A stretch of DNA of 34,826 nucleotides from the IMG/VR virus record IMGVR_UViG_2877251553_000002. One strand, given 5' to 3'. The position numbers and the translations under genes are program-made. Shown piece by piece: positions 24,586 to 25,485 of the stretch (its first letter is position 1; each line of letters starts with the position of its first letter). Under the pieces are notes generated by a model. That model made no database searches, had not been told where the DNA came from, and saw only the letters and a list, made by a program, of their open reading frames with translations. The DNA is from a virus (taxonomy: Duplodnaviria; Heunggongvirae; Uroviricota; Caudoviricetes).

Positions 24586-25485
24586 TCATTTCAGGTATAA
24601 AAAAACCCGCATAAAGCGGGCTCTTTCAAATGTCCATGTGAAGTGGTCAACAAAAACTGGCCACCGAGTTAGAGTTTTTCCAGTATCGATTTTCCGATTC
24701 GTTTGGGGTAACCCACCGTTATATTCGTGCGGTCTTAGTGCGCTGTAATATCCAACGATATAGTCCGTTATGGCGTGAGCTGCCTCGCTGAAGCTTACGT
24801 AACCCACCACCGGCATCCATTCGTTCTTCAGACTCCTGAAGAAGCGTTCCATTGGGCTGTTATCCCAGCAGTTTCCGCGCCGGCTCATACTCTGTCTGAT
24901 CTGGTATCGCCACAATAACTGCCGGAACTGCCTGCTCGTATAATGACTGCCCTGATCGCTGTGGAACATCACCCCGCCGGGCTTACCACGGGTTTCCCAT
25001 GCCATTTCCAGCGCTTTCATGGTGAGCCTGCTGTCCGGCGAGAACGACATGGCCCAGCCCACTGGTTTTCTTGCGAACAGGTCGAGAACAACGGCGAGGT
25101 ACGCCCAGCGCTTACCCGTCCAGATACAGGTCACATCACCGCACCACACCTGATTTGGCTCGGTCACGGCGAACTGCCTTTCAAGGTAGTTAGGGATAGC
25201 AACATGTTCATGACCACCACGTTTATTCCGGTGAGTCGGCTGCTGACAGCTGACCAGCCCCAGCTCTTTCATGAGCCTGCCAGCAAGCCAGCGTCCCATC
25301 TGGTAGCCTCTCCGGGTTGCCATTGTGGCGATGCTTCTTGCTCCGGCCGAACCATGGCTGATGCCATGTAGCTCAAGTACCTGACTGCGTAATACAGCCC
25401 GTCTGCCGTCTGGTTTTTCAGGACGGTTTTTCCAGTATCTGTAGCTGCTGCGATGAACCCCGAACACTTGGCAGAGTGTGACCAC
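24586..25485 (-). CDS. IS911 OrfB (transposase catalytic part), variant reading through the IS end
   Basis: Matches IS3-family OrfB; G4 tract at 24705-24708 (C4 in IS sense) is one base shorter than the C5 tract of the fragment at 23607-23611, so the frame runs past the usual stop. Confidence 0.75.
24597..24622 (-). terminator. rho-independent terminator (late tR'-like), minus strand
   Basis: Stem CCCGC/GCGGG with 5-nt loop followed by a run of 7 T on the minus strand, upstream of the tRNA cluster and holin. Confidence 0.5.

Follow-up and report, generated by a model that had tools for sequence, protein, structure and literature searches.

The stretch of DNA analysed here (the window) is the whole 34,826-nucleotide (nt) IMG/VR virus record IMGVR_UViG_2877251553_000002, assigned to Caudoviricetes, and our subject is a hairpin on its minus strand that stands beside the end of an insertion sequence (IS) of IS911 type. 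We consider it very likely that this hairpin is tR', the late-operon terminator of a lambda-like prophage with an antiterminator of the DUF1133 family, and that the antiterminator gene (Q) and late promoter (pR') of this prophage were lost through an IS911-associated deletion, with an inversion taking place later. Just downstream of the hairpin and on the same strand lies a small island of late genes, four tRNA genes followed by a gene for an S21-type holin, and much of what follows concerns the transcription that these genes may still receive.

In an intact phage of this kind, pR' would overlap the end of the Q gene; RNA polymerase starting there would pause at a -10-like element, where it would be modified by Q at a site in the promoter spacer; the modified polymerase would then pass tR' into the tRNA, lysis and morphogenesis genes. 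Without Q, transcription would end at tR' and leave a short constitutive leader RNA.

The hairpin as a probable late terminator

The minus strand at positions 24638-24590 reads CATGGACATTTGAAAGAGCCCGCTTTATGCGGGTTTTTTTATACCTGAA, and within it the stem AAAGAGCCCGC/GCGGGUUUUUU closes on the loop UUUAU (24626-24600), with a tract of seven U residues (U7, 24605-24599) directly after the hairpin. The 11-pair stem, consisting of a core of 5 base pairs (bp) of G+C with an A-U and G-U extension around the 5-nt loop, and the U tract behind it lie on the late-gene strand, as expected of a tR'. The predicted folding energy is -18.7 kcal/mol, compared with -7.5 +/- 2.4 kcal/mol for shuffled sequences (z -4.7), and none of the 200 shuffles was as stable. 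Behind the hairpin the plus strand reads CTCTTTC, and termination would therefore be essentially confined to the minus strand. Conservation, together with these fold statistics, forms the basis of the terminator claim, and the consensus terminator scan was not used as evidence.

That the hairpin could be a chance inverted repeat, or a product of the IS insertion with no terminator role, is scarcely credible. The simple scan does return terminator-like sites at chance frequency in this region (5 found, 5.0 expected) and does not have the hairpin on its list, the U run having been counted into the stem, but no shuffle folds equally well, the hairpin sequence is identical in two relatives without the IS (L002 and L013, introduced below), and a terminator, with stems that differ, stands at this place in 88% of the DUF1133 family compared with 4% of control windows. 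A search of the region with Rfam gave only the four tRNAs; matches of Trp_leader and isrK at the hairpin fell far under the thresholds and are treated as generic terminator similarity.

Toward the IS, the distance from its end is 12 nt to the extended stem and 18 nt to the G+C core, in keeping with the ~15 bp given in an initial annotation of this DNA, which had been made from the sequence and had proposed that no late promoter or Q gene precedes the terminator. The 12 nt in between, CATGGACATTTG, contain neither a promoter nor a qut-like site, so that the condition by which the initial annotation would have been refuted does not apply.

Intact relatives and the DUF1133 Q-like gene

Three intact relatives were used for comparison, namely L002 (E. 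coli CFSAN029787), L046 (E. coli FDAARGOS_944) and L013, to which the tRNAs, the tRNA promoter pT and the holin gene are base-for-base identical. The sole difference between the island and L013 is a 5-nt tandem duplication, TGAAA (24589-24593), between the U tract of tR' and pT. The intact order is a DUF1133 gene of 184 amino acids (aa), 61 nt, the point at which the IS stands in the window, the hairpin, ~90 nt, the tRNAs, the holin, the endolysin RrrD and Rz. The hairpin lies ~65 nt past the DUF1133 stop codon in all three relatives, and thus in intact genomes it occupies the position of a tR', downstream of Q, upstream of the lysis cassette and on the same strand.

By sequence comparison, the DUF1133 protein is a distant homologue of the Q protein of phage 21 (Q21). 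The two are 24% identical over their full length (BLASTP E 9e-8), the best matches among solved structures are Q21 (6p18 and 6jnx, E 4e-4), and the DUF1133 protein passes the cut-off of PF06530 (29.3 bits vs 26), while reciprocally Q21 falls just under the DUF1133 cut-off (22.0 vs 23.1). The relatives' DUF1133 protein therefore has the homology to Q21 and PF06530 expected of a Q21-type antiterminator, and a survey of Shiga toxin (Stx) phages had labelled DUF1133 as "Q antiterminator (HHpred)" (PMC8136144).

The arrangement recurs across the family in Enterobacterales, for which 25 DUF1133 loci were usable, from Escherichia, Shigella, Salmonella, Citrobacter, Klebsiella, Enterobacter, Buttiauxella, Pantoea and other genera. 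An intrinsic terminator was found 41-113 nt past the DUF1133 stop codon in 22 of the 25, its stem differing by lineage, and the same finder returned 22 hits among 558 control windows of 120 nt from those loci (3.9%). Alignment further revealed a conserved block overlapping the stop codon, consisting of TTGCAA, TTGATT or TTGCTT, 17 nt, TT(G/C/A)AAT, 5 nt and TA(N)GCT, which may be read as a -35, a -10 and a -10-like pause element, the last being a putative counterpart of the TAAGCT of phage 21. In several loci the spacer contains GTGAGCA, similar to the core TGAGCA of the element that Q21 binds. Two versions of the spacer, AGTGAGCA... and AGTTGCGCGG..., were seen among the DUF1133 loci L015-L039 and may correspond to Q-like proteins that differ in DNA-binding specificity. 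Placed on L013, the putative start would be near 3233 and the U tract ends at 3309, giving a predicted leader of ~75 nt in which the IS911-like element of the window would sit at about +37.

A further relative, L008, has a Q of the PF06530 family (933W type) and a different hairpin in the same place, after which its sequence is 98% identical to the window. Since the hairpin is exchanged and the downstream sequence shared, the Q-specific module ends at the terminator, which is what is expected if the Q-loading site lies upstream of the terminator.

Among known systems, phage 21 offers the closest guide to the proposed layout, its record giving the order Q21, pR' with the Q-binding element in its spacer, the start site, the pause element TAAGCTG, tR' within 50 nt, tRNAs and S21. 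The intact relatives are like it in having a Q-family gene, a putative promoter overlapping or abutting the stop codon, a TAnGCT pause-like element at the start and a terminator within ~50-75 nt, followed by tRNA genes and an S21-type holin. They are unlike it in that their Q-like protein, at 24% identity, is filed under DUF1133 and not PF06530; in that the spacer carries GTGAGCA...AGTGCTT, or no obvious element in the E. coli lineage, where phage 21 has ATTGAGCA/AATGAGCA; and in that tR' is set apart from the first tRNA by ~90 nt containing a separate promoter for the tRNAs, whereas in phage 21 the tRNA abuts tR'. The window itself departs further from phage 21, as nothing but the terminator and the 3' half of the leader is left in it.

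The leader of the intact relatives also resembles lambda 6S RNA and StxS, which have a constitutive late promoter, a stop in lysogeny and a short RNA ending in tR' (PMC7547250). StxS, however, is 258 nt long, processed to 74 nt and Hfq-binding; the present leader, of a predicted ~75 nt, has a sequence unrelated to it, and the window, having neither the 5' half of the leader nor pR', would produce no such RNA from pR'.

Loss of Q and pR' by deletion, and an inversion at the integrase gene

Of the upstream part of this module nothing remains in the window. A tblastn search of the whole 34.8 kb with four Q proteins from three families gave a best match of only E 0.37, and no Q gene, pR' or Q-binding site is left anywhere in the window. 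Matches of the intact relatives (blastn) were limited to a 961-bp stretch, 24638-23678, which starts exactly at the IS end. The initial annotation was therefore right that both the late promoter and the antiterminator gene are gone.

The element at this joint (copy B; Table 1) is co-oriented with the tRNAs and holin and adjoins the leader remnant with its right inverted repeat (IRR), which ends at 24639 with ...TTGACCACTTCA, the right repeat ending ...GTTGACCACTTCA. It has the features of an IS911-type element: a transposase of two open reading frames (ORFs), with HTH_Tnp_1 and rve domains in the products of the identical loci L005 and L014; terminal inverted repeats starting TGAAGTGG; a 3-bp target duplication (CAG); and, 6 nt from the right end, an outward-facing -35 hexamer, TTGACC. 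The Prokaryotic Genome Annotation Pipeline (PGAP) labels the matching E. coli element "IS3 family transposase". The junction itself is identical in two public assemblies (L005 and L014), over 1121 bp and with the exception of one slice artefact, and was found in 0 of 5,426 complete E. coli genomes.

Two further IS911-like copies lie in the window, and the two edges of the island are both right ends of such copies, mutually inverted (copies A and B). Copy C, which is 99.6% identical to copy B, stands at the other end of a rearranged segment. The integrase gene is present as two halves ~8 kb apart and in opposite orientation, each adjoining an IS911-like copy, the N-terminal half at the left inverted repeat (IRL) of copy B and the C-terminal half at the right end of copy C. 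When the halves are joined with a single CAG (25887-26238 and 34222-34826), they give an uninterrupted 318-aa frame, and two E. coli genomes that have the gene in one piece match the joined sequence at 99.5%, the joint included. Because the halves are in frame and share the CAG duplication, we conclude that an IS911 copy inserted in the integrase gene and that copies B and C, being inverted relative to each other, later recombined and inverted the segment between them.

Once this inversion is undone, the left-end flank of copy C comes to lie beside the leader remnant on the same strand. That flank is a stub of a helix-turn-helix gene of the replication region, and the distance from the stub point to the leader is 8.6-9.9 kb, colinear, in CFSAN029787, FDAARGOS_943 and RMDEC332. 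The 26-aa stub is not homologous to the gene at the equivalent position in L046, so the size of the deletion was taken from those three genomes. The window was also mapped against the near-intact L046, and the segment missing from it contains replication genes, nin-type genes, DUF1367, DUF1364, the DUF1133 Q gene and pR'.

A 3-bp duplication around the leader insertion was looked for, and the flanks are CTG (reconstructed left) and CAT, with no duplication. Simple insertion of an IS into the leader was ruled out by these non-matching flanks, and the joint would accordingly stem from recombination of two direct IS copies or from an IS-mediated adjacent deletion. Either way, the deletion would have taken pR' with its putative Q-binding site and pause element, as well as Q, the nin region and the replication genes, and the later inversion with another IS911 in the integrase gene would have put half of that gene upstream of the IS. 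The anatomy of the locus, its homology to the intact prophages, the deletion and the inversion are all seen directly.

Table 1. Coordinates of the features discussed, as positions in the 34,826-nt window
Feature	Position	Strand	Basis
Leader remnant, last 12 nt of the pR'-tR' leader	24627-24638	minus	Alignment to L002/L013 begins exactly at IS end
Probable tR' intrinsic terminator	24626-24599	minus	Fold, identity in intact relatives, family-wide recurrence
Putative pT-type sigma-70 promoter (TTGCAG 24543-24538, 17-nt spacer, TATTAT 24520-24515)	24543-24515	minus	Scan, conservation
tRNA(CAT)	24505-24429	minus	ARAGORN, Rfam
tRNA-Arg(TCT)	24427-24351	minus	ARAGORN, Rfam
tRNA-Thr(TGT)	24348-24273	minus	ARAGORN, Rfam
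tRNA-Gly(TCC)	24269-24195	minus	ARAGORN, Rfam
S21-type (class II) holin, intact, 71 aa	23902-23687	minus	Pfam PF04971, E 1e-35
Endolysin (rrrD homologue) stub, first codons	23686-23678	minus	L002 match ends at 4953, rrrD starts at 4944
IS911-like copy A, 3' 720 bp only, inverted relative to copy B	22958-23677	plus	Self-comparison, ends
IS911-like copy B, IS3 family, 1248 bp	24639-25886	minus	Self-comparison, ends, domains
Integrase, N-terminal part, at IRL of copy B, ending CAG	25887-26238	minus	Pfam arm-binding, SAM-like
Helix-turn-helix (replication-region) gene stub, 26 codons, after ydaT, at IRL of copy C	32892-32970	plus	100% identity to intact E. coli prophages
IS911-like copy C, inversion partner of copy B	32971-34218	plus	Self-comparison, ends
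Integrase, C-terminal part, beginning with duplicated CAG, at right end of copy C	34219-34826	plus	Pfam PF00589
IS66-family element, ~2.45 kb, three copies	1-2349, 17909-20353, 26347-28793
IS1, two inverted copies	4461-5228, 15833-16600

What remains of the late operon and its expression

The tRNA genes of the island probably still have a promoter of their own. A pT-type sequence lies downstream of tR' with its -10 ending 9 nt ahead of the first tRNA, and its hexamers, spacing and distance to the tRNA recur despite diverged spacers in L001 (-35 TTGCAA), L042 (TTGAAG) and 933W (TTGCAG). The 933W record annotates the equivalent site as "pT; putative tRNA promoter", and in the Stx2a prophage of Sakai a primary transcription start was mapped at the pT position by differential RNA sequencing (dRNA-seq; PMC7547250). 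Such a promoter accompanies only those clusters led by a CAT tRNA, with none for clusters led by Thr or Asn tRNAs, and the site in the window has the hexamers, the 17-nt spacer, the ~9 nt to a CAT tRNA and the place downstream of tR' that define the type. In 933W, pT precedes ileZ-argN-argO and is like that of the window in TTGCAG, TATTAT, the 17-nt spacer, the 9 nt and a homologous first tRNA; it is unlike it in the spacer (9/17 positions in common) and upstream sequence, and the first tRNA is followed there by Arg-TCG and Arg-TCT, in the window by Arg-TCT, Thr-TGT and Gly-TCC. A distant search of the spacer between tR' and the tRNAs against phage records gave only a 34-nt match in phiP27, which is uninformative.

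The four tRNAs score 56-70 bits in Rfam. The first, with anticodon CAT, is called Met by ARAGORN, but it is a homologue of 933W ileZ and is annotated as tRNA-Ile by PGAP in the E. coli relatives, and it is probably the AUA-reading tRNA-Ile2; the cluster as a whole decodes codons that are rare in E. coli, namely AUA, AGA, ACA and GGA.

A different reading of the same promoter would have the hairpin end only the early-right (Q) transcript and would make TTGCAG-17-TATTAT the true late promoter, so that it is retained and only Q is missing. It is the sole promoter-like match that the scan gives between the IS and the holin, and it lies upstream of every remaining late-strand gene. A Q-loading site must be specific to its Q, however, and the same promoter is found behind three unrelated Q families, DUF1133 (L013), PF06530 (L008 and 933W) and PF06323 (L001), which speaks against this reading. 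In addition, the 9 nt from the -10 to the mature tRNA leave no initial transcribed region for a sigma-dependent pause, and throughout the DUF1133 family the hairpin is preceded by a conserved block read as promoter and pause element. The late promoter and the tRNA promoter are also kept apart elsewhere: 933W annotates pR', qut and pT as separate sites, pR' and tR' of phage 21 were placed experimentally between Q and the tRNAs, and dRNA-seq in Sakai separates the pR' start from the tRNA start (PMC7547250). Overall, we regard pT as a late promoter as highly improbable, and return to the reading in which the hairpin is tR' and pT serves the tRNAs.

The initial annotation had suggested that the remaining late genes are orphaned unless transcription reads through from IS911, and an IS911 supply of the tRNAs, holin and tail genes could be pictured either as read-through of the transposase mRNA or as a hybrid promoter built on the outward -35. 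The element is co-oriented with the island, no terminator was seen inside its right end, and the right end of IS911 is known to carry an outward -35 (PMC9330008), here TTGACC. Between the IS and the genes, however, stands the intact terminator with its U7 tract. Furthermore, Q acts in lambda, 21 and 82 only on polymerase paused beside its own promoter, and the promoter-proximal site needed for Q modification has been lost. The hybrid promoter was rejected, as the hexamers 15-19 nt past TTGACC (TTGAAA, TGAAAG, GAAAGA, AAAGAG and AAGAGC) include no -10, none of them fitting TAnnnT, and a promoter scan of the IS right end and leader remnant found no site; promoter prediction, which the initial annotation had itself put forward as the check, thus agrees with its view of a missing late promoter and gives no help to its idea of a rescue. 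Rescue of the island by IS911 read-through is unlikely, and IS911 as the driver of the tRNAs, holin and tail genes is very improbable.

Under the preferred explanation, tR' would no longer be overcome and would stop only transcripts leaving IS911, and the holin gene would receive only leakage past a weak hairpin after tRNA-Gly. This hairpin (23966-23984, minus strand; GCCCGCTTTTGCGTTT, -3.3 kcal/mol) is weak in L013 and L008 as well, and in L002 its counterpart (GCCCGCTTTTGCGGGC, -14.4 kcal/mol) has the form of a true terminator. In this lineage, some transcription from pT may thus continue into the holin gene. The description of the late genes as transcriptionally orphaned consequently holds in part: Q, pR' and the Q-loading site are gone, but the tRNAs past the terminator keep pT. 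There is also little left to orphan. The holin survives just downstream, but the endolysin gene is cut ~10 nt in by the truncated and inverted IS911 copy A, and beyond this stub the window has no genes for endolysin, Rz, terminase, portal or capsid. Those for neck, sheath and baseplate (minus strand, from 22948 down) are broken by an IS66-family element, IS1 copies and frameshifts, one IS66-family copy splitting the tail sheath gene into 20336-20701 and 17100-17909. The inverted IS1 pair around the baseplate and tail region could allow a further inversion.

The transposase genes differ among the IS911-like copies. A C run that is 5 nt long in truncated copy A is 4 nt long in the full-length copies B and C, which shifts the last ~20 codons of orfB (minus strand 24586-24720; plus strand 23550-23669 and 34070-34240). 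In copy B the orfB frame leaves the IS at its right end, passes through the tR' hairpin and reaches a TGA at 24588-24586, past the U tract; in copy C it continues into the integrase fragment (ORF 33372-34826). A copy B message terminated at tR' would thus be without a stop codon.

One may speculate, though we hold it to be improbable, that the 961-bp island is a working rare-codon tRNA cassette that has been retained, with pT to drive it and the orphaned tR' to keep out transcription from IS911. This would fit the identity of the island to intact prophages amid broken surroundings, the new place of the terminator as the 3' end of the transposase transcript of IS911, and the shifted frame of orfB in copy B, with its stop only past the U tract. 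If true, the orfB message terminated at tR' would be a non-stop mRNA, damping transposase production from copy B.

The wider setting resembles the IS-driven decay of genomes of the Shigella and enteroinvasive E. coli (EIEC) type, in the multiple copies of IS911-like, IS1 and IS66-family elements, in deletion and inversion break points that coincide with IS ends, and in an integrase gene whose two parts share a 3-bp duplication. L046 (FDAARGOS_944, 4286289-4328586), the near-intact cognate prophage, lies between ybhA and pgl and carries at its far end ipaH, a type III secretion system effector gene. This cognate suggests an ipaH-bearing prophage in a genome of Shigella/EIEC type as the origin of the window.

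We acknowledge several points that weigh against parts of this explanation. The element that we take to be IS911, from its terminal repeats, is confirmed at the level of the IS3 family only. The putative pR' start, Q-binding site and pause element are proposed from motif conservation and analogy with phage 21, and the proposed -10 (TTCAAT or TCAATT) has, in this lineage, no A at position 2 where one is usual. At pT, 9-10 of 12 consensus positions match, a level reached at chance frequency (4 found, 3.7 expected), and the argument for this promoter is comparative, drawing on homology to 933W and Sakai. That the deletion came before the inversion is the most economical reconstruction of events, and all statements on expression at this locus are predictions.

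Taken together, the prophage as a whole is defective and non-inducible, with late genes that cannot switch on, and the locus represents ordinary prophage decay with no departure from known mechanisms. Its importance is mainly for annotation: the four tRNA genes should stay annotated as potentially expressed. Mildly new is the comparative support for a module of promoter, pause element and terminator, similar to that of phage 21, behind DUF1133 genes, and these results support renaming the family as Q21-type antiterminators and give a testable motif.

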